64,000 bases of DNA from a bacterium (GTDB lineage Bacteria > UBA8248), in contig OY843592.1 in NCBI GenBank assembly GCA_963692865.2, positions 2,656,001-2,720,000 on the forward strand, given 5' to 3'. The notes beneath the pieces were generated by a model. That model was not told the DNA's origin, made no database searches, and was given only the letters and a program-made list of their open reading frames with translations. The translations under genes were made by a program, and so were the position numbers. Shown one piece after another: positions 3,072-24,757 of this stretch (its first letter is position 1; the number at the start of each line of letters is the position of its first letter).

Positions 3072-3103
3072 AAACTACTCCTCCATGATGGATTGAGTTG
3101 ACT

Positions 3104-3601: not shown

Positions 3602-3619
3602 AACCCTGTTCCGAGAGCG

Positions 3620-3655
3620 AATAAAAAAATGGGCCATCAATTGACCCACTTACTC
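3620..3655 (-). promoter_or_regulatory. rimP leader attenuator/terminator hairpin
   Basis: Minus strand reads AGTGGGTCA-ATTGA-TGGCCCA-TTTTTTTATT just upstream of the rimP start, matching the conserved GGG...CCC + U-tract rimP leader. Confidence 0.75.
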
Positions 3656-3914
3656 GACAGCCAAGATCATCGATACTTTAATCGCCATGCGAGTAAAGCG
3701 CAAGTGCAATAGCTTCTTCGTACAACATGAAGCATTATTGCCCGAAGAAATGCGGCGTGTTAAATTCTGCCGAATTAGGGTGATAGAATATCTTGAAACC
3801 AAACGAGCGGTGAATCCGTTTTGCGTTTTCCTCGAAGAAGCGCCAAGGGCTTCCTTGCCCGATGATGAAGACGCCTCCTGGGTGGAGCGCAATCATCAGC
3901 GAAGAGGCAACTCC

Positions 3915-7980: not shown

Positions 7981-8013
7981 TTGACGGACCGAATTGTTAT
8001 GTTATAACATTAC
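7981..8013 (+). promoter_or_regulatory. sigma70-like promoter overlapped by a Zur box (znuA1)
   Basis: TTGACG at 7981; GAATTGTTATGTTATAACATTAC at 7991-8013 closely matches the proteobacterial Zur consensus GAAATGTTATA-N-TATAACATTTC. Confidence 0.85.
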
Positions 8014-8077
8014 ATTTAACAGCTTCGCCATCCCATTTCACGCCGAAAGGAAAGTATTCATGAAAAGGACCTTATCA

Positions 8078-9172
8078 ATGAAATATGTGTTGCTCACTGC
8101 GGCTCTGACGATGGCGCTCCTCGCGCGCCTGACCGCCCCCGCATCGGCCGCGCCCCCGGTGGTGGTCTCCATCAAACCGCTTCATTCGCTGGTCTCAGGC
8201 GTCATGAAGGGGGTCGGCGAACCCCATCTGCTGATAAAAGGCGCCGCCTCGCCGCATACGTTTTCACTCAAACCCTCCGATGCCGGCGTCCTCGAGAGGG
8301 CGCGCGTGATTTTCTGGGTGGGCGAGGCGCTCGCCCCGAGCCTCGATCGGCCCATCGAAGTTCTGCCGAAACGGGCGAAGGTCGTCGCCATGACGGAGAT
8401 AAAGGGTCTGAAGCTGTTGAAGATCAGAGAAGGCGGTTTGTGGGAAGCGCACGACGACCACGGCGAGAAGGGAAAAGGCGGCCACCATGACGAACACGGG
8501 CACGGCAAGGCCAAAGACGCCGATCATCACGACGAGCATAAACACGCCAAGGGAAAAGACGAGCGCCACGACGAGCATAAACACGAGAAAGCCAAAGACG
8601 ACCATCACGATGAGAAGGCCGGCGCTCATCACGGGGAGCATCATCATCACAGCGATATCGACGCGCACGCCTGGCTCGACCCCGTGTACGCCAAGAAGTG
8701 GGTGCATGAGATCACGCATGAGCTCGAAGAGGTGGATCCTGCGAACAGGAAAAAATACGAGGCGAACGAAAAGAGGCTTATGGCTCGATTGGACGCCCTG
8801 CACGAGGAATTGAAAAGCACGCTCGCGCCGCTGAAAGGCGCGCCCTACGTCGTCTTTCACGATGCGTATCAATACTTTGAGAAACGCTACGGACTGAACG
8901 CCATCGGTTCGGTGACCTTCTCGCCCGAGAAAAAGCCGGGCGCGGCGCGCCTCGTGGCGATACGCAAGAAGATCAGGGACACGAAGGCGGCCTGCGTGTT
9001 CAGCGAGCCGCAGTTCCAGCCCAAGCTGGTGAAGGTCGTCATGGAGGGAACGGGCGCCGAAACCGGCGTGCTCGACCCCCTGGGCGCGGATATTCCCGCC
9101 GGTGAGGACGCGTATTTCACCCTCCTGCGCAACATGGCGAAATCGCTCAGGACATGCCTTTCGGGAGAATAA
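8078..9172 (+). CDS. znuA: Zinc ABC transporter substrate-binding protein ZnuA, copy 1
   Basis: Signal peptide, VVVSIKPLHSLV, ASPH, His-rich loop, DAHAWLDP, FHDAYQYFEKRYG, EPQF. Start 8078 chosen by homology to copy 2; 8060 is also possible. Confidence 0.92.
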   Translation: MKYVLLTAALTMALLARLTAPASAAPPVVVSIKPLHSLVSGVMKGVGEPHLLIKGAASPHTFSLKPSDAGVLERARVIFWVGEALAPSLDRPIEVLPKRAKVVAMTEIKGLKLLKIREGGLWEAHDDHGEKGKGGHHDEHGHGKAKDADHHDEHKHAKGKDERHDEHKHEKAKDDHHDEKAGAHHGEHHHHSDIDAHAWLDPVYAKKWVHEITHELEEVDPANRKKYEANEKRLMARLDALHEELKSTLAPLKGAPYVVFHDAYQYFEKRYGLNAIGSVTFSPEKKPGAARLVAIRKKIRDTKAACVFSEPQFQPKLVKVVMEGTGAETGVLDPLGADIPAGEDAYFTLLRNMAKSLRTCLSGE

Positions 9173-9286
9173 TCCCGGCGCCGCTTCCTGGGGAAATGAA
9201 CCGGCCCGCCCTGTTCCCCCGCATATCCCCAGGAGCCGCCCGCATTTTCGCAGCGGCGAATGGAACCGAAGGGGGGCGATAGTTCC

Positions 9287-9706
9287 GTAGCCGGACAGGC
9301 GCAGGAGCCTGTCCGGCTACGGTGGATGTGGACTGAGGGGAGAAGCCCGACTCCGAGGCGGATCGGCTCCCTTGCGGGGGTCGCATACGGGGTTGTTGAA
9401 AAAGCCGATGCGGTGCAATCCCCCTTCTCGTCCTGCCCAGCCCGCCTCTTCGCCTCACCCTGAGTAGCGGCGAAGCCGCGTATCGAAGGGCCGAAATTCG
9501 CGCCCGCCGGAGAGATGCTCTCCCATCCTTCGATACGGCGCTTACGCGCCTACTCAGGATGAGGGTTCGGGGCCGCTTGCTCGGGATGAGGAGGTCAAGC
9601 GTTCTGCGAAGTCCGATGCCGCGCGGTGGGCCGAGTCCGTTCAGCGACCCCTACACATTCTCCTCGAACAGCGACCGCAGGGAGGGCACAGGGGCCTGTC
9701 CGCTAC
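9287..9706. repeat. Intergenic REP mosaic between converging znuA1 and znuB
   Basis: Palindrome GTAGCCGGACAGGC-GCAGGA-GCCTGTCCGGCTAC (9287-9320); GGGGTTGTTGAAAAAG near 9389; inverted CCTGAGTAG...TCGAAGG pair (9456-9564); reverse GTAG unit ending at 9706. Confidence 0.75.
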
Positions 9707-9737
9707 GCCTCGCTTCGAACGCGGGGTTCCGCGCGGC

Positions 9738-10532
9738 TCACCCCCTGCCTGCGATCATTTCCCAGGAATGACTGAACAGGAACAGCACGGCCGCCGCCAC
9801 AACGATGCAGGGACCCGCGGGCGCGTTCCATTCGACCGACGCCCAAAGACCCGCCCCCACGGAGACGACCCCCGCCAGGACGGCGAGCGCCGCCATCTGC
9901 TCGGGCGTTTTGGCGAACCGCCGCGCCGCCGCCGCCGGTATGATGAGCATCGAGGTGATGAGCAATATGCCTATCAGCTTCATGGCGACGGCGATGATGA
10001 AGGCGATGAGGAGCATGAAGATGAATTTCACGGCGAAGGTCGGAATCCCCTCGGCGCTCGCCAGTTCCTCGTTCACCGTGACGGCGAGAAGGCCCCGCCA
10101 CAGCCACGCGAGCACGGCCAGCGCCGCCGCCCCGCCGAGGTATATCCACCATAAATCGAGCGGGCCGACCGCGAGAATGTCCCCGAACAGATAGCCCATC
10201 AGGTCCACCCGGAGCGTCTCCAGCACGCTGACGGCGATGATGCCCACCGAAAGCGCCGTGTGCGCCAGGATGCCGAGCAGGGTATCGGTGGAGAGTGTTT
10301 TCCGGCTTTGCAGCGCCAGAAGAACGATCGCGAGGCCGATGCATGAGATAAGGATGCCGAGCCTGAGGTCCACTCCGAAGGCGAACCCTATCGCCACGCC
10401 GAGAAGAGCCGTGTGGGACATGGAGTTTCCAAAGTAGGCCATCTTGCGCCAGACGATGAAACAGCCCACGGGGCCCGTCACCAGCGCGACGCCCACCCCG
10501 CCCATGAGCCCCCTGACCATGAAATCCTCCAT
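9738..10532 (-). CDS. znuB: Zinc ABC transporter permease ZnuB
   Basis: GPVGCFIVWRKMAYFGNSMSHTALLG, DLMGYLFGDILAV, GILLITSMLIIPAAAARRF; true start MEDFMVRG at 10532 overlaps the znuC stop. Confidence 0.95.
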   Translation of the reverse strand: MEDFMVRGLMGGVGVALVTGPVGCFIVWRKMAYFGNSMSHTALLGVAIGFAFGVDLRLGILISCIGLAIVLLALQSRKTLSTDTLLGILAHTALSVGIIAVSVLETLRVDLMGYLFGDILAVGPLDLWWIYLGGAAALAVLAWLWRGLLAVTVNEELASAEGIPTFAVKFIFMLLIAFIIAVAMKLIGILLITSMLIIPAAAARRFAKTPEQMAALAVLAGVVSVGAGLWASVEWNAPAGPCIVVAAAVLFLFSHSWEMIAGRG

Positions 10533-11317
10533 CAGTCGCCTCCTTGATGGTGGTGGGCTTCCTTGGGTTCGATGGGGAGTATCTCCCCTTCCGGCCCGTG
10601 AACGTGGTCGTATCTGTGCCTGTAAACGGCGAGGCTCTCGGCCGCCTGTTTGCCGAACAGGGCGAGATATTCGGGGTTTTTGCTCACGGCTTCGGGATGC
10701 CCCGTGCAGCAGATATGCCTGTTGAGGCACACCACGCGGTCCGTGAACGCCATGACGAGGTGGAGGTCGTGCGAGATCAGGATGACGCCGCAGCCCCTGT
10801 CGTCCCTGATCTTCGCGATCAGGCGGTACAGTTCGCCCTGCCCGTTGACGTCCACGTTCTGGATGGGCTCGTCGAGAACGAGGAGTTCGGGGTCGCGCAG
10901 CAGGGCGCGGGCGAGGAGAACGCGCTGGCGCTCTCCGCCGGAGAGGCTCTGGACGGGTTGATCCAGCAGGTTTCCCGCGCCCACCTCATCGAGATGCGCC
11001 TCCATCTGCTCGGAAGACGGTTTTTGGGTAAGACAGAGCAGCCTGCGCACGGTGAGCGGAAGCGAAGGGTCCACCTCGAAGGCCTGGGGCAGGTAGCCTA
11101 CGGAGAGGTCCCCGTTCCGGCGAATCTCGCCCGAGTCGGGCTTGAGCAGCCCGAGCAGCATGCGGACCAGCGTGGTCTTGCCCGCGCCGTTGGGGCCGAT
11201 GAGGGTGAGAATTTCGCCCGCCGATATATCGAGGTCGACGTTATCGAGAATCGTCGTCTCGCCGATGCGGAAATTGAGGTTCGCGACGGAAATGAGGGGA
11301 GGCCGCGCGTCATCCAT
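10532..11317 (-). CDS. znuC: Zinc ABC transporter ATP-binding protein ZnuC
   Basis: GPNGAGKTT, LSGGERQR, LVLDEP, SHDLHLVMAFTDRVVCLNRHICCTGHPE; start at 11317 overlaps the zur stop. Confidence 0.95.
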   Translation of the reverse strand: MDDARPPLISVANLNFRIGETTILDNVDLDISAGEILTLIGPNGAGKTTLVRMLLGLLKPDSGEIRRNGDLSVGYLPQAFEVDPSLPLTVRRLLCLTQKPSSEQMEAHLDEVGAGNLLDQPVQSLSGGERQRVLLARALLRDPELLVLDEPIQNVDVNGQGELYRLIAKIRDDRGCGVILISHDLHLVMAFTDRVVCLNRHICCTGHPEAVSKNPEYLALFGKQAAESLAVYRHRYDHVHGPEGEILPIEPKEAHHHQGGD

Positions 11318-11798
11318 CGTCGTGGCACTCCATGCACCGGCCGCTGATTTCCATGACGGGCGTCTCCACCAGGAAGCCTGCCTGGGTGGCGCTCGCCTCG
11401 ATGGCCTCGCCGATTTCCTCGCTGTGCGTCTCCGCCACGTTTCCGCAATCACGACAAATGAAGAACAGGGCCTTGTGGGCGTCCGCCGACATCGCGCAGC
11501 CCACGAACGCGTTCATGCTTTCGATGCGGTGGATAAGGCCGTGCTTCAAGAGGAAATCCAGCGCCCGGTAGACCGTGGGCGGAGCGTTTCTGCCTCCGCC
11601 CGCGTTCATGCGCTCAAGCACATCGTACGCGCCCAGAGGCGCATGGCTCTCCCAGACGATTTCCAGAACCCGCCTCCTGTGCGGCGTGAGTCTGGCGCCG
11701 CGCTCACGGCAAAGCGCTTCGGCTTGTTCGAGGGCGCTCTCGATGCAGGCCACGTGGTCGTGATCCCTGCGGAGAAAATGTTTTTCTCTCGATGCCAT
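11310..11798 (-). CDS. zur: Zinc uptake regulator Zur (Fur family)
   Basis: RLTPHRRRVLE, APPTVYRALDFL, HRIESMNAFVGC, CRDC and CMEC zinc motifs; divergent from znuA2. Confidence 0.93.
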   Translation of the reverse strand: MASREKHFLRRDHDHVACIESALEQAEALCRERGARLTPHRRRVLEIVWESHAPLGAYDVLERMNAGGGRNAPPTVYRALDFLLKHGLIHRIESMNAFVGCAMSADAHKALFFICRDCGNVAETHSEEIGEAIEASATQAGFLVETPVMEISGRCMECHDDG

Positions 11799-11808
11799 AC
11801 AAAATTCC

Positions 11809-11846
11809 TTGACGGGCAAAATCGAAACGTTATATTATACCAACCC
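11809..11846 (+). promoter_or_regulatory. Divergent zur/znuA2 promoter with Zur box
   Basis: TTGACG 11809-11814; GAAACGTTATATTATACCAACCC 11824-11846 resembles the Zur consensus and covers a -10-like TATATT. Confidence 0.8.
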
Positions 11847-11889
11847 CAAGGGCTGATTCAATCCAACTCAGGCCAAAAGGGCTTAACTC

Positions 11890-13065
11890 ATGAAATATAT
11901 GTCGATCATCCTGGTTCTGACAATGGCGCTGTTTACGGGGTTTGCAGCCCCTGCTTCGGCCGCGCCCCAAGTGGTGGTTTCCATCAAACCGCTTCATTCG
12001 CTGGTATCCGGCGTCATGAAGGGGGTCGGCGAACCCTACCTTCTGATAAGAGGCGCCGCCTCGCCGCATACGTTTTCCCTGAAACCCTCCGACGCCAGAG
12101 AACTCGAGAGGGCGCGCGTGATTTTCTGGGTGGGCGAAGTGCTTGCTCCCGGATTGGAGCGGCCCCTTGAGGTTCTGCCGAAAAAGGCCAAAGTCGTCGC
12201 CCTCGCGGAAATAAAGGGTCTGGAGCTGATTAAGCTCAGGGAAGGCGGCCTGTGGGAAGGGCACGATGATGATCATGGCGAAAAGGATGATCACCACGAA
12301 AAGGAAAAGGGCGAGGCCAAAGGCGAGCATCACGACGAGGGCAAAGAGGCGAAAGCCGGGGACGATGATCACGACAAGGAGAAACGCGGAAAAGCCGAAG
12401 ACGACCATCATGACGAGAAGGAAAAAGCCAAGGCCAAAGAAGAACATCACGATGAAGAAAAGCGCGGAAAAGCCGAAGATGACGATCACGATAAGGAGAA
12501 GGCCGAGGCCAAGGGTGGTCATGGAGATGAGGAGGATCATCACGGCGGCTTCGACGCGCACGTCTGGCTCGACCCCATGAACGCCCGCAAATGGGTGGAC
12601 GCCATCGCCCATGAACTCGAAGAGGTGGATCCTGGGAACAGGAAAAAATACGAGGCGAACGCGCGGAACATGAAGGCCCGCATCGACGGCCTGCACAAGG
12701 AACTCGCGCGCACGCTCGCCCCGGTGAAGGGTACGCCCTACATCGTCTTTCACGATGCGTATCAATATATGGAAAAACGCTACGGACTGACCCCCATCGG
12801 TTCGGTGACGCTCTCGCCCGAGAAAAAGCCGGGTTCGGCGCGCCTCGTGGCGATACGCAAGAAGATCAGGGACACGAAGTCGATCTGCGTGTTCACCGAG
12901 CCGCAGTTCCAGCCCAGACTGGTGAAGGTCATCATGGAGGGAACGGGCGCCGGAACAGGGGTGCTCGACCCCCTGGGAACGGATATTCCCACCGGGGGGA
13001 ATGCGTATTTCACCCTCATGCGCAATATGGCGAAATCGCTCGTGAGGTGTCTTTCGAGGAAATAG
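11890..13065 (+). CDS. znuA: Zinc ABC transporter substrate-binding protein ZnuA, copy 2
   Basis: Same motifs as copy 1, with a longer His/Asp/Glu/Lys-rich loop; in the canonical position divergent from zur-znuC-znuB. Confidence 0.94.
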   Translation: MKYMSIILVLTMALFTGFAAPASAAPQVVVSIKPLHSLVSGVMKGVGEPYLLIRGAASPHTFSLKPSDARELERARVIFWVGEVLAPGLERPLEVLPKKAKVVALAEIKGLELIKLREGGLWEGHDDDHGEKDDHHEKEKGEAKGEHHDEGKEAKAGDDDHDKEKRGKAEDDHHDEKEKAKAKEEHHDEEKRGKAEDDDHDKEKAEAKGGHGDEEDHHGGFDAHVWLDPMNARKWVDAIAHELEEVDPGNRKKYEANARNMKARIDGLHKELARTLAPVKGTPYIVFHDAYQYMEKRYGLTPIGSVTLSPEKKPGSARLVAIRKKIRDTKSICVFTEPQFQPRLVKVIMEGTGAGTGVLDPLGTDIPTGGNAYFTLMRNMAKSLVRCLSRK

Positions 13066-13226
13066 TTCGGGGCGGCGTTTCCCCGGGGATATGAACGAGC
13101 CTGCCCGGCTCCACGCATATCTTCGGATGCCCGCCCGCCGCGGTCGATAATTTTGGCGGGAACGTATTCCCATCCTCTTTGCTGAAAACTTTCCGCAAAA
13201 TTCTGTATTTGCGCCTGAACAATCTG

Positions 13227-13256
13227 TTGACACTCCCCCCTTTCGTCTAGTAACTT
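13227..13256 (+). promoter_or_regulatory. Candidate sigma70 promoter of the permease-SPFH operon
   Basis: TTGACA (13227-13232), 18 nt spacer, TAACTT (13251-13256). Confidence 0.45.
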
Positions 13257-13324
13257 CAAAAAATAACGCGATACGGAATCGGTGTGGTTTCCACGAAATC
13301 TTTCATTGCGAGGGGAATGGCCCA

Positions 13325-16054
13325 TTGGCTGCCGATTTGGCAAGCAGATTCGCCGATTTTTTTTACTTTCTGTGGATGTCGTTCCTGCTGCTCTCGCCCA
13401 TGCTGCTGCTCGGTCTGTTTCTCTCCGGCCTGATCCACGTCTTCATCTCCCGTCAGGCGATTCTCCGGTGGCTTCGCGACGACGGCCTGAAATCGGTGAG
13501 CGTCAGCTCGGCCGTCGGCGTCCCCGTGCCGCTGTGCAGTTGTTCCGTCGTGCCCGTGGTCGCCGAGATGCGCAGAAAAGGAGCTTCCCGCTCGTCTTGC
13601 ATGTCCTTTCTGATAACGGCTCCCGAAACGGGCGCCGATTCGATTCTCGTGACGAACGCCTTCTTCGGATGGATAGCGGCGATAGTCCGCCCCGTCATCA
13701 GTTTCGTCACCGCGGTCGTCGCCGGCGTCTTCTGCATCGGCCTCATAAGAGCGGATGAAGGCGCGGCGAAAGAAGGCGAGCACGATCATGAACACGACCA
13801 CGGGCACGATCACGACCACGCGCATGATCACGGGCATGGCCACGACCACGATCACGGCGCGCACGAACCGCTCGTGCCGGGTTCGGAGGACTGCTACATC
13901 AGTCCTGCCCAACTCAAGCGCGCCCTCATCCGTTGGGTGAAGGGAGTCGCCGTATCGGTGCGAAACTGGAAGGCCGCGTCATGGGTGAAGCCGGACTTCT
14001 ACCAGGAGGAATTGTCCGCCGATGAGGAATCGGGCGAGACCGGCCTCGCCCCTGTGTCCGAGGCGGAGCGCCTGCCGGGTTTCAGGACGATCGTCAGGCA
14101 CATATTCAGCTACGGCTTTGTCGAAATCGCGGACGACATTCTCTTCTCGCTTCTCTTCGGCGTCTTCGTGGGCGGATTGCTCTTTCTGGTGATCCCGAGC
14201 GATCTGATGCAGAACGAATACGCCCGCTGGGCGTCCTACCCGATCATGGTCATCATCGGTATTCCCCTCTATATCTGCGCGTCCGCGAGCACGCCCATCG
14301 CCGCCGCGCTCGTCGCCAAGGGTTTCACTCCCGGGGCTGCGCTGATTTTTCTCATGACGGGCCCGGCGACCAACACGGGAACCATCGCGGTTATCATGAA
14401 CCAGTTCGGCACGCGCTTCGCGTCCATCTACGTCGGCGTCGTCATCGTCGTCACCGTCATTTTCGCCGTCCTGATCGACGCGTTTTTCTTCGCCACCGGT
14501 TTTTCGCTTCCCGTGAACCTCAACGCCTCGGAATCGCCCGCCATCCTGTTCCTGCAATACGGGAGCGCCCTGGTCTTTTTCGTCCTGGTCGTGTGGCGTT
14601 TCCGCGCCGGCGCCTTCCGAACGGGATATGAGGATCTGTTGCAGAACATCCGCTCCATGTCCGAGCCTTCCAGGTACGTGTGGGATCGCCTGACCCGGGG
14701 CCGGTCCATACGAGGCGCTTTCTCCCTGAAAACGCCCATGGGCCTCATTCTCTCGGGCCTGATTCTCCTCGTCTTCCTCGGCACCGGCTTCACGACCGTG
14801 CCTCCAGGCGCCGTCGGCTACGGCCGCCTGTTCGGCAAGATCTACTGGAGAGACTTGCAACCGGGGCTGCACTATCTCGCTCCCTGGCCCTTCGTCGAGG
14901 TGGATAAATGGCCGGTCAGAGAGGTGAAGTCCATCATGTCCGGCGACGTCCACGAGTACGTTTCCGGCGATCTGAATCTGGTCTCCCTCACTGTGAACGT
15001 GCAGTACCGGGTGCAAGACCCCTTCGTCTATCATTATCGGGTAATCGACGCGCCCAAGGTCATTGAGGACAGCGTCAGGGACCACCTGCGCGGCTTCGTA
15101 TCCGCCCGGGGTCTGGAGCAGTTGCTCAACGTCCATCGCAAAACCCTGGAGAAGCACGTCTCCCATTTGTTCGAGCATTTGTCCGCCAAGGCGGATTCGG
15201 GGCATGCGGACGTAGAAGCCTCGGCGTTCGAGAGCGTCGAACTGGTAAAGGTGAATCTGGCGGCCATCCGCCCCGTGGCCGAGACGATAAGCGCGTTCCG
15301 GGAGGTGTCGAGCGCGCAGGAGGACAAGGAGCGGATTATCGTCAACGCGCAGCGGTTCCTCGTGTCGCTGACGCCCCGCGCTTACGGCAATGCCGATTAC
15401 GAGGTGAAACAGGCCGACGGCGAGGCGTACCGTAGAGTGAAAGGCGCCGGGGCGGAAGCCGACGCGATCCGGCGAGTGTCCGGGGCCGTGCGGAGCGCTC
15501 CGGAGGTTCTTGAGAACATGCTGTGGCGCGAGAAGCTCGAAATCGCGCTCTCGCATAACTCCAAGATCATCGTTCCCGACAAGGGAAGTCTGGCCAAGGT
15601 CGCGCTGTGGAAGCGGCGCTCCACGGGAACGAGTCATGGCGCCCACAATCCCGGACGCGGGAGGAACGGCGCCGGCGAGGACGCGGGCCACGAAGGCGGT
15701 GGCGGCGATAACGACAAGAGCGGCGGCCACGGCGGGAACAACGCAGAGAAAGACAAGAGCGAAGCCCACGGCGAATCGGGCGAATCCGGGGGCGGCGCGG
15801 CGCATGGCGAGAACAACGGCGCTCATGGCGAGACGGAAAAATCCGGGAACGCGAGAGCCCACGGCGGGAACAACGCGGAGAAAGACAAGAACGGCGCCCA
15901 CGGCGAATCGGATAAATCACCAAACGATACGGCCCTTGGCGGGAGGAACGGCGCAGACGAGGGACGCGGCGCTCATGGCGCGTCGGCGAGCTCGAACGTC
16001 GCGCGAAATGATTCCATGGCCGGGGCGAACCACAGCGGGAGAGAGAAGAGATGA
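13325..16054 (+). CDS. SO_0444/DUF318-type metal permease fused to an HflK-like SPFH domain with a His/Gly-rich tail
   Basis: N-terminal half has PVPLCSCSVVP, LITAPETGADS, an (HD/HG)n loop, PLYICASASTPIAAAL and GPATN. C-terminal half has FTTVPPG..FGK..LQPGLHYLAPWP, AFREVSSAQEDKER and PEV..MLWREKLE (HflK-like). One open frame of 909 aa. Confidence 0.85.
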   Translation: MAADLASRFADFFYFLWMSFLLLSPMLLLGLFLSGLIHVFISRQAILRWLRDDGLKSVSVSSAVGVPVPLCSCSVVPVVAEMRRKGASRSSCMSFLITAPETGADSILVTNAFFGWIAAIVRPVISFVTAVVAGVFCIGLIRADEGAAKEGEHDHEHDHGHDHDHAHDHGHGHDHDHGAHEPLVPGSEDCYISPAQLKRALIRWVKGVAVSVRNWKAASWVKPDFYQEELSADEESGETGLAPVSEAERLPGFRTIVRHIFSYGFVEIADDILFSLLFGVFVGGLLFLVIPSDLMQNEYARWASYPIMVIIGIPLYICASASTPIAAALVAKGFTPGAALIFLMTGPATNTGTIAVIMNQFGTRFASIYVGVVIVVTVIFAVLIDAFFFATGFSLPVNLNASESPAILFLQYGSALVFFVLVVWRFRAGAFRTGYEDLLQNIRSMSEPSRYVWDRLTRGRSIRGAFSLKTPMGLILSGLILLVFLGTGFTTVPPGAVGYGRLFGKIYWRDLQPGLHYLAPWPFVEVDKWPVREVKSIMSGDVHEYVSGDLNLVSLTVNVQYRVQDPFVYHYRVIDAPKVIEDSVRDHLRGFVSARGLEQLLNVHRKTLEKHVSHLFEHLSAKADSGHADVEASAFESVELVKVNLAAIRPVAETISAFREVSSAQEDKERIIVNAQRFLVSLTPRAYGNADYEVKQADGEAYRRVKGAGAEADAIRRVSGAVRSAPEVLENMLWREKLEIALSHNSKIIVPDKGSLAKVALWKRRSTGTSHGAHNPGRGRNGAGEDAGHEGGGGDNDKSGGHGGNNAEKDKSEAHGESGESGGGAAHGENNGAHGETEKSGNARAHGGNNAEKDKNGAHGESDKSPNDTALGGRNGADEGRGAHGASASSNVARNDSMAGANHSGREKR
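15727..15911 (+). repeat. Intragenic direct repeat in the His/Gly tail
   Basis: CCACGGCGGGAACAACGCRGAGAAAGACAAGA...GCCCACGGCGAATCGG occurs at about 15727 and 15859, encoding HGGNNAEKDK..AHGES twice. Confidence 0.8.
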
Positions 16055-16962
16055 CCTTCAGCGCAAAGAGAATCTTCGCGGCCATCGCCGTGGTTGTCCT
16101 GCTCGTCGTAGCCTACGACTGCTTCTACGTCGTCGACGAGACGCAACAAGGGGTACTGACCCACTTCGGCAAGATTTCGCCTCCCGTCAGGCAGCCCGGC
16201 CTCCACGTGAAATGGCCCAGGCCCGTATCCAGGGTCTACAAGGTCGACCGGCGCATTCACGCCATGACGGGCCTCACCCAGGAATTGATCACCGAGGATC
16301 AAAAGAGTGTCCTTATAGACGGATACCTGCTCTGGCGCGTGACGGACCCCATTCTCTTCGTCGAATCGATCCGGACAGGCAAGAGCGCGACGAATCGGCT
16401 CAAGGACCTCTATATGTCGAGCAGCGGCATCATCATCAGCAACAAGGCGCGCGACGCCTTCATCGGGCTGGGACTCGAGCATGAAGATCTGAGCGAGGCG
16501 TCTCAGAAGATTCTGGGCCTCATCGCGCCCGTCGCGAAAAAAAATTACGGCGTCGAGGTAGTGCGCACCGGGATCGTCGAGTACACGCTGCCTGTAGCGA
16601 ACCGGCCGAGCGTGATTCAGCGGATGATCTCCGAGCGCGCCCGCATCGCCGCCCGCTACCGCAGCGAGGGCGAGGAGATGGCGATCCGCATCGAGGCCCG
16701 CGCCATCAACGAGCACGAGAAACTCCTCGCCGATGCCCACGCCCAGGCGACGACCATTCTGGGCAAGGCGGAAGCCCAGGCGATGGCGCTGCTCGGCGAG
16801 GCGTACAAAGCGGACCCGGAGTTCTACAAGTTCATCCGCGCCCTCGACAGCTATGATCTCATAATCAACCGGAACACAACCCTCATGCTGCCGGCGGACA
16901 ACGAACTGTTCAAATATCTCGACAGCAAGGAAATACCCCGCCGGGACGGGGCTGGCCGATGA
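16051..16962 (+). CDS. HflC-like SPFH protease modulator
   Basis: YVVDETQQGVLTHFGK..PGLHVKWP, RMISERARIAARYRSEGEE, AYKADPEFYKFIRALDSY; ATGA overlap with the upstream gene. Confidence 0.9.
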   Translation: MTFSAKRIFAAIAVVVLLVVAYDCFYVVDETQQGVLTHFGKISPPVRQPGLHVKWPRPVSRVYKVDRRIHAMTGLTQELITEDQKSVLIDGYLLWRVTDPILFVESIRTGKSATNRLKDLYMSSSGIIISNKARDAFIGLGLEHEDLSEASQKILGLIAPVAKKNYGVEVVRTGIVEYTLPVANRPSVIQRMISERARIAARYRSEGEEMAIRIEARAINEHEKLLADAHAQATTILGKAEAQAMALLGEAYKADPEFYKFIRALDSYDLIINRNTTLMLPADNELFKYLDSKEIPRRDGAGR

Positions 16963-18284
16963 ACGAAGGACAATCAACGCCTCCAAGCGCGCGAATCATA
17001 TACGCCGTATTCGACTTTTTCGGGCGTCAATACAGGAAGGTTATCGCCGGCCTCATCATCGTCTGCGTGCTCGCTTTTCTGGCGAACGGCTTCTACGTCG
17101 TCCAGAAAGAAGAACAAGCCGTGCGCACCCGCTTCGGGAAGGTGGTCGACGCCGAAGTCGGCCCGGGGCTGGGCTACGCCGTCCCGCTCATCGAGCGGGC
17201 GCACGTTCGCAAGGTCAAGGAGATCGTCGGATACCAGATCGGGAGCAGGAGCGGCGCCACGATCAACTTCACGATACTCTCCGGCGACCTGAACCTCCTC
17301 GATACGGACGTGGCCGTTCAATACAAGATCAAGAACCTGCGCTCCTACCTCTTCGCGGCCTCCGACCCCCGCAAGATGCTCACCATGCTCGTTCGCGAGG
17401 GGCTGGTCAAGATTCTGGGGGAGAACTTCATCGACCTGATCTTCACCTCGAACCGCGACGTCATTCAGAAACAATTGGCCGGCCTGGTGAACAAGCGCCT
17501 CGAATCGCTGGGCGTCGGGATCGAGCTCGTCACGCTGAACATCGTCGAGGTGCGCTCGATTCCCGAAACCCTCCAGGCCTTCCGGGACGTCAACGACGCC
17601 TTCGCGGAGCGTGAGCAGGTCGTGAGCCGGGCGAACAGCCAGAGGGAAATGCTGCTCGCCCGCAGCAAGGGCCAGGCCGACGCGCTGATCATGAACGCGA
17701 AGGCGAACGCCCGCGAACGCCTCGTTCAGGCGCGAGGCAGCGTCCGCGCCTTCAAGGCGCTGCTGGCCGAGTACAGGAAAAATCCGAACCAGGTGGCCAT
17801 CACCCGGTATTGGCAGCGTATGCGCGCCATCTTCACCGAGGCGAGTCTGGCGATGGTGAATCCGGGCAAGGACTCGACCATCGACATCAACATGCTCGAA
17901 GGCGCGCCGGGATTCACTCCTGCGGGAGCAGGCGGCCACGGCGTGGCGGATTTGGTGACGCGAATGCCGCATACGGCGGGCGATGCCGATGGACGCCTGA
18001 GCAGGGCGACCATGCCGCCCTACATCCACAGGCTCGAAACCACCCGGCGGGACGACCCGCTCAGAGAAGGCCGTTTCCACAAACGGCGCACGGAGCGCGA
18101 CCATGCGCGGGTGGCCAGTCCACGCTCGCTGATCTTCGATACGCCTTCCATATTCTCCCATCGCCACGGCGCGCCCGGCCGCAAGAGGATCGGAAACCGG
18201 GCGGACCAGAGGCCGATGACGGAGAAAATGCTGGGCGCGGGCGGGAACAACCATGGGCGCGAGACGGGGAAAAAGGATGATTAG
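16959..18284 (+). CDS. HflK-like SPFH protein with C-terminal extension
   Basis: FYVVQKEEQAVRTRFGK..GPGL, LSGDLNLL, AFRDVNDA, EYRKNPNQVAITRY; about 120 aa basic, His-containing tail; ATGA overlap. Confidence 0.88.
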   Translation: MNEGQSTPPSARIIYAVFDFFGRQYRKVIAGLIIVCVLAFLANGFYVVQKEEQAVRTRFGKVVDAEVGPGLGYAVPLIERAHVRKVKEIVGYQIGSRSGATINFTILSGDLNLLDTDVAVQYKIKNLRSYLFAASDPRKMLTMLVREGLVKILGENFIDLIFTSNRDVIQKQLAGLVNKRLESLGVGIELVTLNIVEVRSIPETLQAFRDVNDAFAEREQVVSRANSQREMLLARSKGQADALIMNAKANARERLVQARGSVRAFKALLAEYRKNPNQVAITRYWQRMRAIFTEASLAMVNPGKDSTIDINMLEGAPGFTPAGAGGHGVADLVTRMPHTAGDADGRLSRATMPPYIHRLETTRRDDPLREGRFHKRRTERDHARVASPRSLIFDTPSIFSHRHGAPGRKRIGNRADQRPMTEKMLGAGGNNHGRETGKKDD

Positions 18285-19491
18285 ACGACTGCCCGGCAGA
18301 CTTCGCGCGGCTCTCTTTCCGGCCTTGGCGCTCTTGCTGGTCCCGTCGCTTTCGGCGGCGGCGCCCGGCGTGAGCGCGGATGCGGTCGTTTTCGGCCAGA
18401 CCGTCGGCATCTCGGGGCCGGCCAGGAGCGCGGGGCTCCTCTTTCAGGAGGGCATCTTCGCGGCGCTGGAAGAACGCAACGCGCGGGGGGGCGTAGGCGG
18501 CAGGACGTTGAGGCTGATCTCGATCGACGACGGATACGAGCCCCAAAGAGCCGCGGAGAACGCGAAGAAATTCGCCGCGGAAAACAAGGTGCTCGCCTTG
18601 ATCGGCGGAACGGGAACGCCGACGACGAAACGCGCCGCGCCGGTGCTGCGAGAGGCCGGGATCCCTCTGGTGGGCGTCCTCAGCGGCGCCGACTTTCTGC
18701 GGGATGCCAGGCGGTATCCGAACCTCGTCCACCTGCGGGCGAGCTATTCCCAGGAGGTCCGCGCTCTCGTGGATCACATCGTTCGCAAACGCGGCAAGAA
18801 ACGCTTCGGCATCATCTACCAGGACGACGCTTTCGGACGTTCCATATTGAAGAGCTACCGGGAGGCGCTGGCCGCGCACAAACTCCGCGTCCGGGCGAAA
18901 GCGAGTTTTTCGCGCAATACGCATGCCGTTCACGCGGGCCTGTTCGTCCTTCAAAAGGCCGATCTCGACGTCTTGATGATCGGCGGAACAAACGAGGTAA
19001 GCGCCGAGATCATCAATCTCGTGAACGACCTGGGCCACGATTACGTCATGGCCACGTTGTCCATCTCCCTGTCCCATAAACTGAGAATGAGCATCGAAGC
19101 GCGGAGTGACAAAATCCTGCTGAGCGAAGTGCTGCCGGACGCGCACGACACGAGCAGCAAAATCGTCAGAAGTTATCAGCGCGCCATGCTTGACCGAGCG
19201 GCGAAAAAGGGGAGCGGGGAGTCCGCCCGGCCCGAATTCACCCAGTTGTCCCTGGAGGGCTACATTCTCGGCCGCTTCGTCATCGCCGTCCTCGAGCGCA
19301 CGGGCGAGAATGTAACAAGGGAGCGGTTCCTGCAACAGGCGCTGGCCTCCGGGGTTACGCTCATCGACGACTGGGCGGTCGAATTCAAGCCCGGAGCGAA
19401 CACCGGCTCGAAGTACGTCAAGGTGATCAACTTCAACAAGGATAGCCACGACTTCACGAAAGGAGACGGCGGCCTTGAAAAAGGTAGATGA
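18277..19491 (+). CDS. Type I periplasmic (LivJ/Leu-binding-like) substrate-binding protein
   Basis: Signal peptide, GGVGGRTLRLISIDDGYEPQRA, GTPT, LRASYSQE, YQDDAFG; start 18277 overlaps the hflK-like stop. Confidence 0.85.
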   Translation: MIRRLPGRLRAALFPALALLLVPSLSAAAPGVSADAVVFGQTVGISGPARSAGLLFQEGIFAALEERNARGGVGGRTLRLISIDDGYEPQRAAENAKKFAAENKVLALIGGTGTPTTKRAAPVLREAGIPLVGVLSGADFLRDARRYPNLVHLRASYSQEVRALVDHIVRKRGKKRFGIIYQDDAFGRSILKSYREALAAHKLRVRAKASFSRNTHAVHAGLFVLQKADLDVLMIGGTNEVSAEIINLVNDLGHDYVMATLSISLSHKLRMSIEARSDKILLSEVLPDAHDTSSKIVRSYQRAMLDRAAKKGSGESARPEFTQLSLEGYILGRFVIAVLERTGENVTRERFLQQALASGVTLIDDWAVEFKPGANTGSKYVKVINFNKDSHDFTKGDGGLEKGR

Positions 19492-19963
19492 GTTTTCCAC
19501 CGAAGAGGTCGGAGAGGAGTGGCTGCGCGAACTCTACAAGGTGATCGCGCTGCGCCGCGGCACCATGTTCCGGCTCATCACCGAGTCGGCGCGCATGCTG
19601 CTCTACGGCAACGCGGGCGGCACGGCGTTGATCATCGGCTTCATGAGCAACACCTCGAAGGCGGAAAATACGTTCTACCACTGGACGCTCCTGCTGGCTT
19701 TGATCGTGTTCGGAGCCGGCGTTCTCATGGCGGCGCTCACCCTGGTGCTGGTGACCCTGGTTTCGGTGAAAGAGGCGCACGGGGCGGAAGACGGACTCAA
19801 GGAGTTCGTCGACGGCAATCTGGATCGCACGAAAGTGCTGTTCACGGTGAAAAACGAGACGTTTCGCCTCGCGGACTACACCACGGTGGCCGGCACCGTC
19901 AGCGCCGCGTGTTTCATGATCGGCGGCCTGCTCAGCCTCTTCCTGTTGGTTCTGTTCTTCTAG
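19475..19963 (+). CDS. Hypothetical membrane protein (about 3 TM segments)
   Basis: Hydrophobic segments, host-like codon usage, overlaps the upstream SBP stop by 17 nt. Confidence 0.7.
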   Translation: MKKVDEFSTEEVGEEWLRELYKVIALRRGTMFRLITESARMLLYGNAGGTALIIGFMSNTSKAENTFYHWTLLLALIVFGAGVLMAALTLVLVTLVSVKEAHGAEDGLKEFVDGNLDRTKVLFTVKNETFRLADYTTVAGTVSAACFMIGGLLSLFLLVLFF

Positions 19964-20159
19964 GCCTCCCGAGGGGACAAAAGCGAACCTCCCCGCTTCG
20001 GTAAGATTCCTCCCGCATCAGCCGCGATTGGCCCCCGTTTCCCTCCCCTCGCCTCGTGTTGTATGATGATCCGCGTTGCAACGCGCGCGTTATGGAAGAG
20101 CGCCGCGAGTACGGCATATACCGCCCCCCGGCGAGACCGGGTCATTCGGGAGACAGGCA

Positions 20160-20570
20160 ATGGCCGAGACAGTTCGTGAAGTCCCCTACTACTACATGAT
20201 CGCGTCGAACAAGCCGGGAGAGGGCGCCGCCCTCTCCGCCATGCTGAAGGAGTCGGGCGTCGGCCTGCTGGCGGTGCACGCCTTCCCCGAGCGCAGGCGC
20301 GTTCAGGTCGACATCGTGCCCGAGGACGCGCGCGCCTTCACCGCCTTCGCGCGAAAGGCGAAGATCAAGCTCAGCCCCCGGAAGAAGGCCTTCCTCGTCG
20401 AGGGCACGGACCGCACGGGCGCGCTGGTGCCGGTCTTCGCCAAGCTCGCGGACGCAGGCATCAACATCACCGCCATCACGGCCATCGCCGCGGGCCGGAA
20501 GCGCTACGGCGCCATCTTCTGGGTGAATCCCAAGGACCAGCGCCGGGCCAAGAAAGCGCTGGGGGCGTAG
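20160..20570 (+). CDS. Tandem ACT-domain protein
   Basis: Two ACT-like motifs, NKPGEGAAL..LKESGVGLL and DRTGAL..VFAKLADAGINIT; start at ATG 20160 after GGGAG. Confidence 0.75.
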   Translation: MAETVREVPYYYMIASNKPGEGAALSAMLKESGVGLLAVHAFPERRRVQVDIVPEDARAFTAFARKAKIKLSPRKKAFLVEGTDRTGALVPVFAKLADAGINITAITAIAAGRKRYGAIFWVNPKDQRRAKKALGA

Positions 20571-20605
20571 ACGCGCGAGCGAAAAGGTAAGGCTTGCCGC
20601 TCTTC

Positions 20606-21685: not shown

Positions 21686-22021
21686 ATGACGCGAGTCGAC
21701 GACGCGCTTCTCCGGCGGATGGTCGAAACCATCGTGGACGAAGTCGATCCCGAGCAGGTGATCCTCTTCGGCTCACGCGCGCGCGGCGAGGCGGCGGCGG
21801 ACTCCGATGTGGATTTTGTGGTGGTGGAAGCCGCGCCCTTTGGCGCCGGACGGAACAGGCGCGCCGAGACGACGCGTCTTTGGCGCGCGCTGGCGGGTTT
21901 CGATGTTTCCAAAGACATTCTGCTCTTCAGCCGCGACGAAGTGGAATACTGGCGTGATTCCCTCAACCACGTGCTGGCGCGCGCCCTGCGCGAAGGCGAA
22001 GTACTCTATGAGCGACATTAA
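21686..22021 (+). CDS. Minimal nucleotidyltransferase (MNT/MntA-type antitoxin)
   Basis: ILFGSRARGEAAADSDVDFVVV (GS-x10-DxD), ends ALREGEVLYE; AAGGAGG RBS. Confidence 0.9.
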   Translation: MTRVDDALLRRMVETIVDEVDPEQVILFGSRARGEAAADSDVDFVVVEAAPFGAGRNRRAETTRLWRALAGFDVSKDILLFSRDEVEYWRDSLNHVLARALREGEVLYERH

Positions 22022-23231: not shown

Positions 23232-23843
23232 TCATGGCGTGACGCCCACAAGCACCAGAGGAACGGCGGGAACCCCGCGGCCTTGCCGCAGGACGTTCAG
23301 CAAATCCCGCTCGTAGTAGGCGACGCCGGAAGACATCTCCCGCTCCAGTTCCTTCATGGGAAGTATCTCCACTCCTACGTCGATGATGTCGGAAACGTAG
23401 AAGCTCAAATGCTTTACGAACAGATCATGCGCGACGAAGGCGTACTTGCCGAACTGAACCTCCACCGCGACGCGCTCTTTTACGAAATCCGTCTGGTTGT
23501 AGGACATGATGGGTTCGTGTCCCGCTTCTTCGATGGCGCGTTTCTGCTCGCTTTCCGACAGGCCGTATATGCCACGCATGAGCTTCTCGTCCGCCGTGAG
23601 CCAGAAAGTGCTCCTGCGTTCGCTCCAGCCCCGGGCCTTGAGGCCATCCTTGAATGCGCGGTTCATATCGGCGGGCGAGAACAGCAACTTTCCGGGCATG
23701 GTCTTTTCTCTGGAGACCTTGGTCCGGCAAGCCATCGCGTCGACTTCCGCGATGACTTCCTGCACCTCATCCCATAACCGTTTGCGGTGGACAAGCAGAT
23801 ATTCCTCGCCGTTCAGATGAGAATACTTGGCTTTGATGCGCAC
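23232..23843 (-). CDS. BglII/BstYI-family type II restriction endonuclease
   Basis: YSHLNGEEYL, NQTDFVKERVAVEVQFGKYAFVAHD (D..ExQ active site), EMSSGVAYYE; coupled to the MTase. Confidence 0.88.
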   Translation of the reverse strand: MRIKAKYSHLNGEEYLLVHRKRLWDEVQEVIAEVDAMACRTKVSREKTMPGKLLFSPADMNRAFKDGLKARGWSERRSTFWLTADEKLMRGIYGLSESEQKRAIEEAGHEPIMSYNQTDFVKERVAVEVQFGKYAFVAHDLFVKHLSFYVSDIIDVGVEILPMKELEREMSSGVAYYERDLLNVLRQGRGVPAVPLVLVGVTP

Positions 23844-24757
23844 TAATGACCGCCGTTTGGTTTGGCGGGGTCATAGATGGGCTTTCCCATCGGGCGCGTT
23901 TTCAAGGTTCCCGCATACAGCTTACGCACCCGGTCGAGCGCGATGTCCGCGTATTCGGAAACGACGTCGCAGCCATAGGCCGTTCTCTCGTGCTTGAGAG
24001 CGGCGATGATGGAAGAGCCGACGCCCATGTAGGGGTCGAACACCGCATCGCCCGCATCCGTCATGGAAAGAACCAAGCGCTCCACCAACTCGACGGGGAA
24101 CTGGCAGGGGTGAATCGTTTTTTCGGGGTGATTGCTCTTCACGTTCGGAAAAATCCACACGTCGCTCGGGTTCTTTCCCTTGGGATTCCCCGATAGTTTT
24201 CCGATGTTCGGCCCCTTGAAGTGTTTCTTGCCCGGATACTTCGCAGGCACCCGTATCGGGTCGAGGTTCCAGGTGTAATCGTCGCCCTTCGTCCACCAGT
24301 TGATGGTTTCGTATCGGCCCGAGAGCCGCTTGGTGCAGTGAAGCCCGTGGCCGAAGCTCCAGACGATTCGGTTGCGGAGCTTGAGACCCTGCGCCCGAAA
24401 AACGGGATATAGAACCGCGTCGAGCGGAATGATCTCACCGTTTTCCACATAGTTGCCGACCTGCCAGCAGATGGAGCCTTTGGGGTGCAGGAGACGCACG
24501 CACTCGCGTATCACCCGCTCCTGCGCTTCGATGTAATCATCGATCGGGGTTCTCGATTCGTATTCCTTCCCCAGGTTGTAGGGGGGCGAGGTGACGATGA
24601 GCTTCATCCGCTCATCGGGAAACTCGGCCATGAAAACGAGGTTGTCCGCGCACGCGAGGACGGGTTGGCTTTTTGGTTCTTCCCCCTCCAATCGAGGGAG
24701 CATGTCCTGCATCGGCTGCCGCGCCGTGCTTTCAACATTCGAAGCGGCGTTGGTCAT
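23843..24757 (-). CDS. Site-specific DNA methyltransferase (N4-C/N6-A, beta class)
   Basis: IVTSPPYN motif IV precedes HPCQFP and VFDPYMGVGSS motif I. Confidence 0.93.
   Translation of the reverse strand: MTNAASNVESTARQPMQDMLPRLEGEEPKSQPVLACADNLVFMAEFPDERMKLIVTSPPYNLGKEYESRTPIDDYIEAQERVIRECVRLLHPKGSICWQVGNYVENGEIIPLDAVLYPVFRAQGLKLRNRIVWSFGHGLHCTKRLSGRYETINWWTKGDDYTWNLDPIRVPAKYPGKKHFKGPNIGKLSGNPKGKNPSDVWIFPNVKSNHPEKTIHPCQFPVELVERLVLSMTDAGDAVFDPYMGVGSSIIAALKHERTAYGCDVVSEYADIALDRVRKLYAGTLKTRPMGKPIYDPAKPNGGH

Follow-up and report, generated by a model that had tools for sequence, protein, structure and literature searches.

A conserved five-gene cassette encoding an SO_0444-type permease fused to an HflK-type SPFH protein: a candidate metal-handling membrane complex

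Introduction

Few clients of bacterial SPFH rings are known outside the HflK/HflC-FtsH complex, and the service that such a ring renders to the proteins it surrounds is poorly understood. In this study we describe a cassette of five genes (named g1 to g5 in order, as are their products), located at positions 13325-19963 of a 64,000-nucleotide stretch of bacterial DNA (GTDB lineage Bacteria; UBA8248; assembly GCA_963692865.2, contig OY843592.1, positions 2,656,001-2,720,000, forward strand). The whole stretch is referred to below as the window, and its coordinates are used unless another contig is named. The first gene joins a metal permease to an HflK-type SPFH protein; g2 and g3 encode an HflC-type and another HflK-type protein, g4 a periplasmic binding protein and g5 a small membrane protein.

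The HflK/HflC-FtsH complex of Escherichia coli (7vhp, 7wi3, 9cz2) contains HflC-type and HflK-type subunits with an N-terminal helix, an SPFH domain and a long coiled coil, and the cassette encodes subunits of the same types. Unlike this complex, it comprises three paralogues instead of two, one of which is fused to a polytopic permease, and it shows no linkage to ftsH or hflX. Moreover, neither g1 nor g3 reaches the equivalog cut-off for HflK, a canonical pair is encoded separately in the genome, and the place of the protease as client would be taken by a transporter.

In E. coli, QmcA faces the cytoplasm. SPFH oligomers solved with a membrane partner include QmcA-YbbJ (8z5g) and stomatin-aquaporin-1 (9zd2), both of which are among the fold matches of g1; unlike the permease of g1, their partners are separate proteins, and the PDB titles indicate no link with metals.

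The permease half of g1 is related to SO_0444 of Shewanella oneidensis, whose gene adjoins one for a ZntR-like regulator (PMC3219624) and whose family has a Cys-Ser-Cys motif as its signature (10.1101/2022.07.06.499078). Like SO_0444, this half scores above the cut-off of the family model NF033936 and retains the motif. It differs from the stand-alone protein with its ZntR-like regulator in being extended by a His-rich loop, a linker, an anchor helix and an SPFH domain, while the cassette adds a binding protein and a small membrane protein, and has uptake genes among its contexts.

The nearest system in the literature is that of Pseudomonas aeruginosa, where three SPFH genes (PA2437-PA2439) share a locus with the Zn/Cu-importing P-type ATPase HmtA (PMC4542158). 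The PA2439-PA2435 locus is reported to be Zur-bound and induced by zinc depletion (PMC4542158, 10.1101/2021.05.28.446167, PMC11761036, PMC9431628): Zur shifts the PA2439 promoter (10.1101/2021.05.28.446167), and PA2437-PA2439 increase 9-14 fold when znuA is mutated (PMC4542158) and are raised in zinc-depleted proteomes (PMC11761036). A 2026 study, which names the three proteins PaFlo5-7, reports that the operon is patchy and was probably transferred (PMC13086221). We identified a comparable operon in Marinomonas flavescens (locus L005, 7053-13129), in which three SPFH genes, encoding M1, an HflC-type protein with a His-rich N-terminus and an HflK-side protein, are followed by a gene for a P-type ATPase with a His/Asp-rich N-terminus. 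M1 (654 aa) consists of a 330-aa polytopic N-domain without a Pfam family match and a Band_7 domain, and its homologues are common in Pseudomonas spp. This operon matches PA2439-PA2435 in outline, the P. aeruginosa locus being known here from published descriptions only.

The cassette shares with PA2439-PA2434 (PaFlo5-7 plus HmtA) and the Marinomonas operon the presence of three tandem SPFH genes, one HflC-type and two HflK-side, the first of which encodes a polytopic N-domain, though the N-domains belong to unrelated families. A His-rich metal transporter encoded in the operon and a patchy, transfer-like distribution (for Pseudomonas see PMC13086221) are further common traits. In contrast, the transporter of these operons is a separate P1B-type ATPase, whereas the cassette has a fused ArsP_1 permease and no P-type ATPase, as well as a binding protein and g5, which the Marinomonas operon lacks. 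Identity between the two systems is low (29% for g2 versus Marinomonas M2).

Results

The permease-SPFH fusion

The gene g1 (13325-16054, + strand) is a single open reading frame (ORF) of 909 aa when read from a TTG start; translation may begin at this TTG (13325) or at an ATG 17 codons later, and the database copy has 892 aa. The permease domain (13325-14605, residues 1-427) belongs to the SO_0444/ArsP_1 type and has some nine membrane helices arranged as two repeats. It matches PF03773 (ArsP_1) over residues 21-384 (E 3.5e-46) and NF033936 (SO_0444 family Cu/Zn efflux transporter) over residues 18-423 with 316.2 bits, i.e. by a small margin above the equivalog cut-off of 300. The motifs PLCSC, YICAS and GPATN and an HD-repeat loop, all noticed in a sequence-only reading that preceded this analysis, are present in the translation and conserved in alignments. 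Across 118 sequences C71, C92, C190 and C318 never vary and C73 hardly does; the C71-S72-C73 motif lies in the first repeat, with S72 and C73 at least 90% conserved, and a C[ST]C motif occurs in 95 of 101 fused cluster representatives (see below). Between the two repeats is a His/Asp-rich loop (13772-13864, + strand, residues ~150-180, HDHEHDHGHDHDH...) with an 18-nt repeat array at 13793-13857. The longer segment 146-263 holds 15 His residues, and an HD-type repeat was found in 22/101 fused representatives.

The permease is followed by a basic, helical linker (residues 428-470) and a single anchor helix (471-493; together 14606-14803, + strand), and then by the HflK-type SPFH and coiled-coil part (14804-15604, + strand, residues 494-760). 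Seven K/R residues are found within 432-463, the linker motif WRFRAGA..SGYEDLL is conserved, and alignment conservation runs across the junction, including the anchor helix. The SPFH part matches PF01145 (Band_7) over residues 492-676 (E 4.8e-11; 43.5 bits versus a gathering score of 23.6), and residues 475-759 align to residues 83-352 of E. coli HflK (7vhp_E, E 3.7e-19).

The AlphaFold2 model of g1, built from 118 alignment rows, has a mean per-residue confidence score (pLDDT) of 67.2, with values of 85-91 over residues 480-650 and below 50 in the His/Asp-rich loop. It contains helices broken at the CSC (68-74) and ICASAS and at the APETG and GPATN motifs in the two repeats, plus a ninth helix; helices 430-457 and 471-486 in the linker and anchor region; and coiled-coil helices 652-724 and 726-743 after the SPFH domain, with disorder from residue 761. 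In Foldseek the top match of the model was HflK (7vhq_E, E 4e-14). There were 47 PDB matches at E<=0.001, those listed being SPFH or vault-type proteins, the best of them HflK, HflC, QmcA, prohibitin, stomatin, erlin and flotillin; the matches listed for the whole model gave no placement for the permease half.

The protein ends in a disordered tail (15605-16054 including the stop, + strand, residues 761-909; pLDDT <30) rich in G, A, N, E, S, D and H. Such a long tail is found in own-genus copies and in only 2/17 other aligned homologues, most of which have a short His-containing tail. Approximately 130 residues of it (15605-16051) are of low complexity and include repeated ..NNAEKDK..AHGES.. 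units. In a related strain (contig X5) the piece at 15794-15818 is rearranged, so that the g1 tail varies between strains.

The X5 contig, which comes from a DNA run of a different study, spans 13312-15818 with 47 substitutions and no gaps. Contigs designated X1 are identical to the window throughout and may represent its source sample. An assembly artefact or frameshift at the junction was ruled out by the gapless DNA of this second strain and by the abundance of fused homologues. Both PF01145 and PF03773 were detected in 116 of the best 120 g1 homologues (671 matches among 8000 candidates scored); these are 716-892 aa long, 58-100% identical to g1, derived from Gemmatimonadota, Opitutae and Latescibacteria metagenome-assembled genomes (MAGs), and named only "SO_0444 family Cu/Zn efflux transporter" or with YraQ/HflC-type labels. 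Among 1.84 billion cluster representatives (50% clustering), 7703 matched g1 at E<=1e-3, of which 1095 also did so at E<=1e-30. Both parts were present in 101 of the top 150, with the permease always first, and 94 of these 101 were full-length fusions of 666-941 aa with identity down to 29%; the distant fused clusters are 29-46% identical. For one fused homologue of 796 aa (P0014) the precomputed domains also list PF02535 (Zip), a match to the ZIP model that is probably due to its His-rich loop.

The in-frame fusion postulated by the sequence-only reading is thus borne out by the single ORF, the gapless X5 DNA over the junction and hundreds of fused homologues. That reading was not aware of any functional description, and our literature search likewise found none of an SPFH-permease fusion, of PF03773 combined with an SPFH domain, or of the cassette. 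The domains are all of known families and the fusion is abundant in databases. The reading missed that the architecture forms a large, old family, and that the related theme of three SPFH genes with HmtA is already in print (PMC4542158, 10.1101/2021.05.28.446167, PMC13086221).

Conservation and distribution of the cassette

The related loci numbered 59, six of them from same-genus genomes or a close MAG and 53 from metagenomes. The fusion was present in 40, and in all 30 fused loci whose sequence extends 5.5 kb or more beyond the permease part the order g1-g2-g3-g4-g5 was colinear. These 30 loci correspond to 23 distinct ones after removal of copies with identical identity signatures, and 17 of the 23 are distant. 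The other ten fused loci end at contig ends and contain the expected genes up to the cut. Identity to the window ranges in the distant loci from 64 to 80% (g2), 46 to 62% (g3), 45 to 60% (g4) and 53 to 85% (g5), and in all related loci reaches 64-94% for g2 and 46-84% for g3. Seven distinct loci, each with 2.4 kb or more of downstream sequence, carry a permease-only homologue (51-65% identical) and lack an SPFH gene there; stand-alone and fused permeases therefore coexist.

The distribution of the cassette is sparse. Within the window's phylum a full-length copy is carried by 6 of 51 genomes (its own included), with one more copy cut at a contig end, and cassette copies occur in 6 of 22 other species of the genus. 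In the phylum of locus L003 (a Verrucomicrobiaceae MAG) none of 301 sampled genomes had a match at E<=1e-60, and in that of L002 (a Gemmatimonadaceae MAG) one of 301 had a match at E<=1e-40, samples which show rarity, not absence. A genome-contig search with a single protein yielded eight loci, of which L001 alone qualified as a full relative and L005 is the Marinomonas operon. In five genomes of the genus that lack the cassette, zur-znuA2 is retained, and 1.5-kb flanks held neither g5 nor the gene for an ACT-domain protein that follows g5 in the window.

In one of the distant loci (L056) a complete cassette lies 2.3 kb from a gene upstream of it (2518-5703, - strand) encoding a MobF/TraI-type conjugative relaxase-helicase of 1061 aa, a hint that conjugative elements may carry the module. 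Taken together, the sparse distribution and this relaxase suggest that the cassette is an accessory module spread by horizontal transfer.

Metal-transport genes around the cassette

The flanks of 20 distinct loci were clustered by BLAST and one member of each cluster was scanned for its family. Homologues of znuA, znuB or znuC (40-94% identical to those of the window) were found in five of these loci, including ones of distant lineages. In L049 znuA, the cassette, znuC and znuB follow each other on a single strand, while in L056 znuCB lies directly after g5. A gene of a ZIP-family cluster is located near g5 in nine of the 20 loci, and efflux genes, considered in the Discussion, are likewise present in nine.

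Unfused close homologues of the permease were found in eight distinct loci, two of which (L073 and L072) are informative and the other six not. In L073 (15-3630) the permease gene stands in a tight co-directional row with genes for a TonB-dependent receptor and a CobW/COG0523 GTPase, and in L072 (6460-10449) it is located between Nramp and ZIP genes. These two permeases are 58-63% identical to that of g1, and their contexts are typical of metal uptake, not efflux, despite the family name.

Both the gene set and its order hold across distant lineages, a covalent link joins the permease to an HflK-type protein, and metal transporters dominate the neighbourhood.

The three SPFH paralogues

The protein g2 (16051-16962, + strand) is of the HflC type, and g3 (16959-18284, + strand; 441 aa) is a second HflK-type protein with a basic C-terminal tail. 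Each has one N-terminal membrane helix, hydrophobic and preceded by K/R. With TIGR01932 (hflC) g2 scores 170.2 bits, above the cut-off of 134.4, and with the enterobacterial HflC model NF008259 it scores 143.2 bits, below the cut-off of 427; it aligns to E. coli HflC (7vhp_G) with E 7.4e-34. The HflK model TIGR01933 (cut-off 159.4) gives 147.6 bits for g3 and 121.2 bits for the SPFH half of g1, both below the cut-off. The Band_7 (PF01145) scores are 68.4 bits for g2 and 63.7 bits for g3, versus the gathering score of 23.6.

In a tree of 30 SPFH parts, for which the program gave a warning on long branches, the SPFH part of g1, g2 and g3 each form a clade of their own (100/100). The g2 clade groups with HflC of the same genome and Marinomonas M2 (98/95), and those of g1 and g3 with HflK of the genome (100/99). 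The canonical hflK/hflC pair is located 2.18 Mb away (G000:C1:490505-492114), with an HflK of 286.7 bits versus the cut-off of 159.4 and an adjoining HflC-like gene, and two ftsH genes are found elsewhere in the genome (C1:2571128 and C1:1399067). Given the tree, the scores and the separate canonical pair, the cassette contains one HflC-type and two HflK-type extra paralogues.

The binding protein g4 and the membrane protein g5

The fourth gene (18253-19491, + strand) encodes an orphan periplasmic binding protein of the LivJ/Peripla_BP_6 type, whose signal-peptide-like N-terminus consists of a basic and a hydrophobic segment. It matches PF13458 (Peripla_BP_6) with E 7.2e-47, and its nearest solved relative is 4kv7_A (E 4.7e-39). 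Unlike in ABC importers of the HAAT family, which have LivJ-type binding proteins, no ABC permease or ATPase gene accompanies g4, either in the window's cassette or between the cassette genes of related loci.

The product of g5 (19475-19963, + strand) is a membrane protein of 162 aa with three long helices (9-58, 66-112 and 127-161 in an AlphaFold2 model with pLDDT 78.9), which stands outside known families: there was no match in Pfam, NCBIfam or PADLOC, a fold comparison with the PDB gave nothing at E<=0.001, its Atlas neighbours were unnamed clusters throughout, and hhalign against the long SPFH protein of Marinomonas gave a probability of 0.08. It is well conserved (72% mean column identity in an alignment of 19 sequences), with an invariant acidic N-terminal helix (EE..EEWLRE) and an invariant H69. 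Both g4 and g5 are present in every complete cassette examined.

TRAP (DctPQM) and TTT (TctABC) transporters combine a large secondary permease with a small membrane subunit and a periplasmic binding protein, all encoded together. The permease of g1, g5 and g4 make up an equivalent parts list, a resemblance missed by the sequence-only reading. No homology to these systems was detected, g4 being LivJ-type, g5 familyless and the permease ArsP_1, so the likeness is one of possible working, not of membership.

Gene calls and flanking DNA

The five genes overlap. The g1/g2 and g2/g3 junctions are ATGA tetranucleotides (16051-16054 and 16959-16962, respectively), the TAG of g3 (18282-18284) overlaps g4 whether the ATG of the latter is that at 18253 or that at 18277, either of which may be its start, and the TTG of g5 (19475), with AAAGGAG 5' of it, precedes the TGA of g4 (19489-19491). 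A survey of the window ORFs with a family search revealed no ftsH, hflX or ABC permease/ATPase gene in the operon, and no ftsH or hflX beside the cassette in the window. Several proposals of the sequence-only reading are thereby confirmed, namely the five overlapping + strand genes directly downstream of a znu locus (znuA2 ends at 13065) and the absence of ftsH, hflX and ABC partners. It had also suggested looking for a separate housekeeping hflKC and a conserved gene neighbourhood, both of which were found as described above, and the link with metal handling that it proposed is supported, with znu linkage recurring in distant lineages.

The DNA is GC-rich and contains long antisense ORFs, e.g. 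13979-15901 on the - strand (640 aa). The + strand genes are considered the real ones because of their family matches and cross-phylum conservation, which also rule out chance ORFs in GC-rich DNA. A reading as a defence system was rejected, with no PADLOC-DB family matched by any of the five proteins at E<=0.001, and an Rfam search over 12900-20600 gave nothing at E<=1. The next gene 3' of g5 (20076-20570) encodes an unrelated ACT-domain protein. Further 3' of the cassette are genes for a small nucleotidyltransferase (21686-22021, + strand; NTP_transf_2/Polbeta, MNT-like) and an N6/N4 DNA methylase (23843-24757, - strand), which may be toxin-antitoxin or restriction-modification remnants.

The zinc-uptake locus, the candidate promoter and transcripts

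Upstream of the cassette, ORFs and their translations define a zinc-uptake locus (7994-13065) composed of znuA1 (+, 7994-9172), znuB (-), znuC (-), zur (-) and znuA2 (+, 11890-13065). The two znuA genes flank znuCB-zur, and both ZnuA proteins contain a very long loop in which His, Asp, Glu and Lys are abundant. Zur-box-like palindromes can be read at 7996-8013 and 11829-11841; a pattern search gave five matches versus 0.96 expected, all of them at these positions, i.e. only at the znuA1 and zur/znuA2 promoters. In both znuA promoters a CTTGACGG -35-like element is followed by the palindrome. The upstream regions of 18 distant loci, inspected by eye, contained AT-rich palindromes in L062, L051 and L059 and no common motif.

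A candidate promoter of the cassette is located at 13227-13255 (+ strand; TTGACA, an 18-nt spacer, TAACTT). A consensus promoter scanner missed it and reported one promoter-like site, on the wrong strand, while terminator-like sites were at about the level of shuffled sequence. The znuA2-g1 intergenic region is variable: it is about 60-70 nt shorter in the window than in other own-genus loci, and in the related strain 13064-13312 is replaced, the X5 contig skipping 247 nt and carrying 312 other letters. The promoter-like core is retained.

Two metatranscriptome libraries of one study yielded contigs over 25 and 18 of the 30 bins of 11700-20300. Such contigs bridge the permease/SPFH junction (X6, 14174-15138; X9, 14443-15072) as well as the g2/g3, g3/g4 and g4/g5 boundaries; the libraries may hold DNA carry-over, and a contig across two genes is not proof of one transcript. 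The cassette is covered from 13386 and there is no cover over 11700-13134, an uncovered part that proves nothing.

Discussion

We propose, with a probability of about 45%, that the five genes form one operon whose products build an inner-membrane complex for the homeostasis of zinc, and perhaps of copper or cadmium as well, with a binding-protein-assisted permease attached to a ring of the HflK/C type. We regard the broader view of the cassette as a metal-handling SPFH-permease complex as probable. Zinc scarcity as the condition of its use is an evenly balanced proposition, and net inward transport a tentative one.

As regards assembly, substrate and direction of transport, we infer the following. 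By analogy with E. coli HflK/C, g2 would alternate with the HflK-type g1 and g3 in a ring or cage on the periplasmic face, whose membrane helices would fence off a patch of membrane. Each g1 would pull one thiol- and His-rich permease into this patch via its cytoplasmic linker, and the unfused g3 may dilute the bulky g1 so that the ring can close. To judge from the parts list, g4, g5 and the g1 permease might act like a tripartite binding-protein-assisted secondary transporter, and the system would take up or hand over zinc, or a zinc-ligand complex, in zinc scarcity, as part of a Zur-type response and not of plain efflux. The sequence-only reading had likewise placed the permease in an HflK/HflC-type cage and considered that the binding protein might deliver or sense a ligand, suppositions that derive from homology to E. 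coli HflK/C and from gene order. The topology assumed here is a conditional one. Four segments of g1 are K/R-rich, namely the loops that follow helix 1 and the CSC region, the His-rich loop, and the linker. Re-entrancy of the broken pairs 55-84 and 298-331 would put the last two in the cytoplasm and the SPFH domain in the periplasm, like those of g2 and g3.

Uptake or hand-over in scarcity is preferred because of the binding protein, the contexts with znu, ZIP, TonB-dependent receptor, COG0523 and Nramp genes, and the Pseudomonas analogy, and the tripartite-like parts list speaks against a literal reading of the label "efflux". Nevertheless, direction of transport is the main point at issue, and a number of observations weigh against our proposal. 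The family label and the Czc, CDF (cation diffusion facilitator) and CopA neighbours favour export. SO_0444 itself was named a Cu/Zn efflux protein on the basis of fitness defects in ZnSO4 and CuCl2, with complementation (PMC3219624), and ArsP-type permeases are described as exporters (10.1101/2022.07.06.499078). The scanned members of the efflux clusters that adjoin cassettes in nine of the 20 distinct loci include a CusA/CzcA RND protein (TIGR00914, 1206.8 bits), HlyD_D23 (membrane fusion protein, MFP) and OEP; only 75 nt separate the end of the RND gene from g1 in L041, where both are on one strand, L059 carries a CDF gene, and L065 one for a CopA-like ATPase together with a sensor kinase. 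The family names of LivJ-type binding proteins point to amino acids, urea and amides, not metals. As to regulation, the pattern search revealed no Zur-like box in the 260 nt before g1, and a TTGACA/TAACTT-type element 70-100 nt before g1, a candidate promoter of the cassette's own, is conserved in all eight own-genus intergenic regions aligned; transcription from znuA2 may nonetheless read through into g1. The topology of g1 is based on a model of medium confidence (pLDDT 67.2) and the positive-inside rule. Finally, an SPFH triple mutant of P. aeruginosa is reported to have subtle phenotypes only, in assays that did not cover zinc (PMC13086221).

Many of these observations would be accommodated if the cassette were an efflux or resistance module, in which the permease exports Zn(II)/Cu like SO_0444 while the SPFH ring stabilises, clusters or gates it, the whole being part of a metal-resistance island. 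The score of g1 above the NF033936 cut-off, the requirement for SO_0444 under zinc and copper stress and its linkage to a ZntR-like regulator gene, the RND/MFP/OEP, CDF and CopA-like neighbours, the candidate promoter lacking a Zur-like box and the relaxase near the cassette in L056 all fit such a module. It leaves the binding protein and the small membrane subunit, present in every complete cassette, with no obvious role, and it agrees poorly with cassettes embedded in or directly followed by znuABC or ZIP genes, with close unfused homologues that accompany a TonB-dependent receptor and COG0523 or Nramp and ZIP, and with the lack of a MerR/ZntR-type gene in the window's locus. Outward Zn/Cu transport is experimentally backed only for Shewanella SO_0444, and the gene contexts described here are a mixture of uptake and efflux. 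We consider an efflux module somewhat unlikely. The efflux label could be reconciled with the znu, ZIP and COG0523 contexts if zinc were pumped into the periplasmic lumen of a closed SPFH cage, for metallation or storage, where g4 and His-bearing tails would hold or pass on the metal as a pool for scarcity. The HflK-type parts do cover the region of the E. coli HflK cage wall (residues 83-352), the model has long coiled-coil helices, the C-terminal tails of homologues often end in His, and g4 is periplasmic by its N-terminus. The closed cage, the enclosure of g4 and metal binding by the tails are all suppositions, though, an open, nautilus-like structure of native E. coli HflK/C also exists (title of PDB entry 9cz2), and the long tail of the window's g1 is not conserved. 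We rate a storage role as distinctly improbable.

Another interpretation departs from the known partner of HflK and HflC. The SPFH proteins could serve as a quality-control adaptor that recruits FtsH, the permease being a tethered client whose turnover is set by metal status. The HflC score of g2, the proximity of g1 and g3 to HflK and the two FtsH genes of the genome are compatible with this, and an FtsH link has been proposed for PA2437-2439 by the authors of the respective studies (PMC11761036, PMC9431628). Yet there is no ftsH or hflX in or beside the window's cassette, the genome has a canonical HflK whereas g1 and g3 miss the equivalog cut-off, and g4 and g5 are left without a role; we rate an adaptor function as very improbable. 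The most novel interpretation, a closed periplasm-facing SPFH nanocompartment ("zinc vault") whose wall subunits carry their own metal permeases and whose lumen holds the binding protein, so that zinc is captured, stored or handed over sealed from the bulk periplasm, is speculative, and we rate it as unlikely.

Conclusions

In this cassette evolution fused a client to a ring subunit and kept the fusion, so that the client is defined genetically. The cassette is thereby a defined, co-expressible five-protein system for studying client identity, stoichiometry and the effect of a ring on transport. The public annotation "SO_0444 family Cu/Zn efflux transporter" hides half of g1 and may give the wrong direction of transport. 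Should the zinc vault prove true, it would be the first SPFH cage with a genetically fused client and the first such metal-handling compartment in bacteria. The cassette also suggests how the unexplained SPFH genes under Zur control in Pseudomonas might be interpreted, and it points to a zinc-handling route that may be new.

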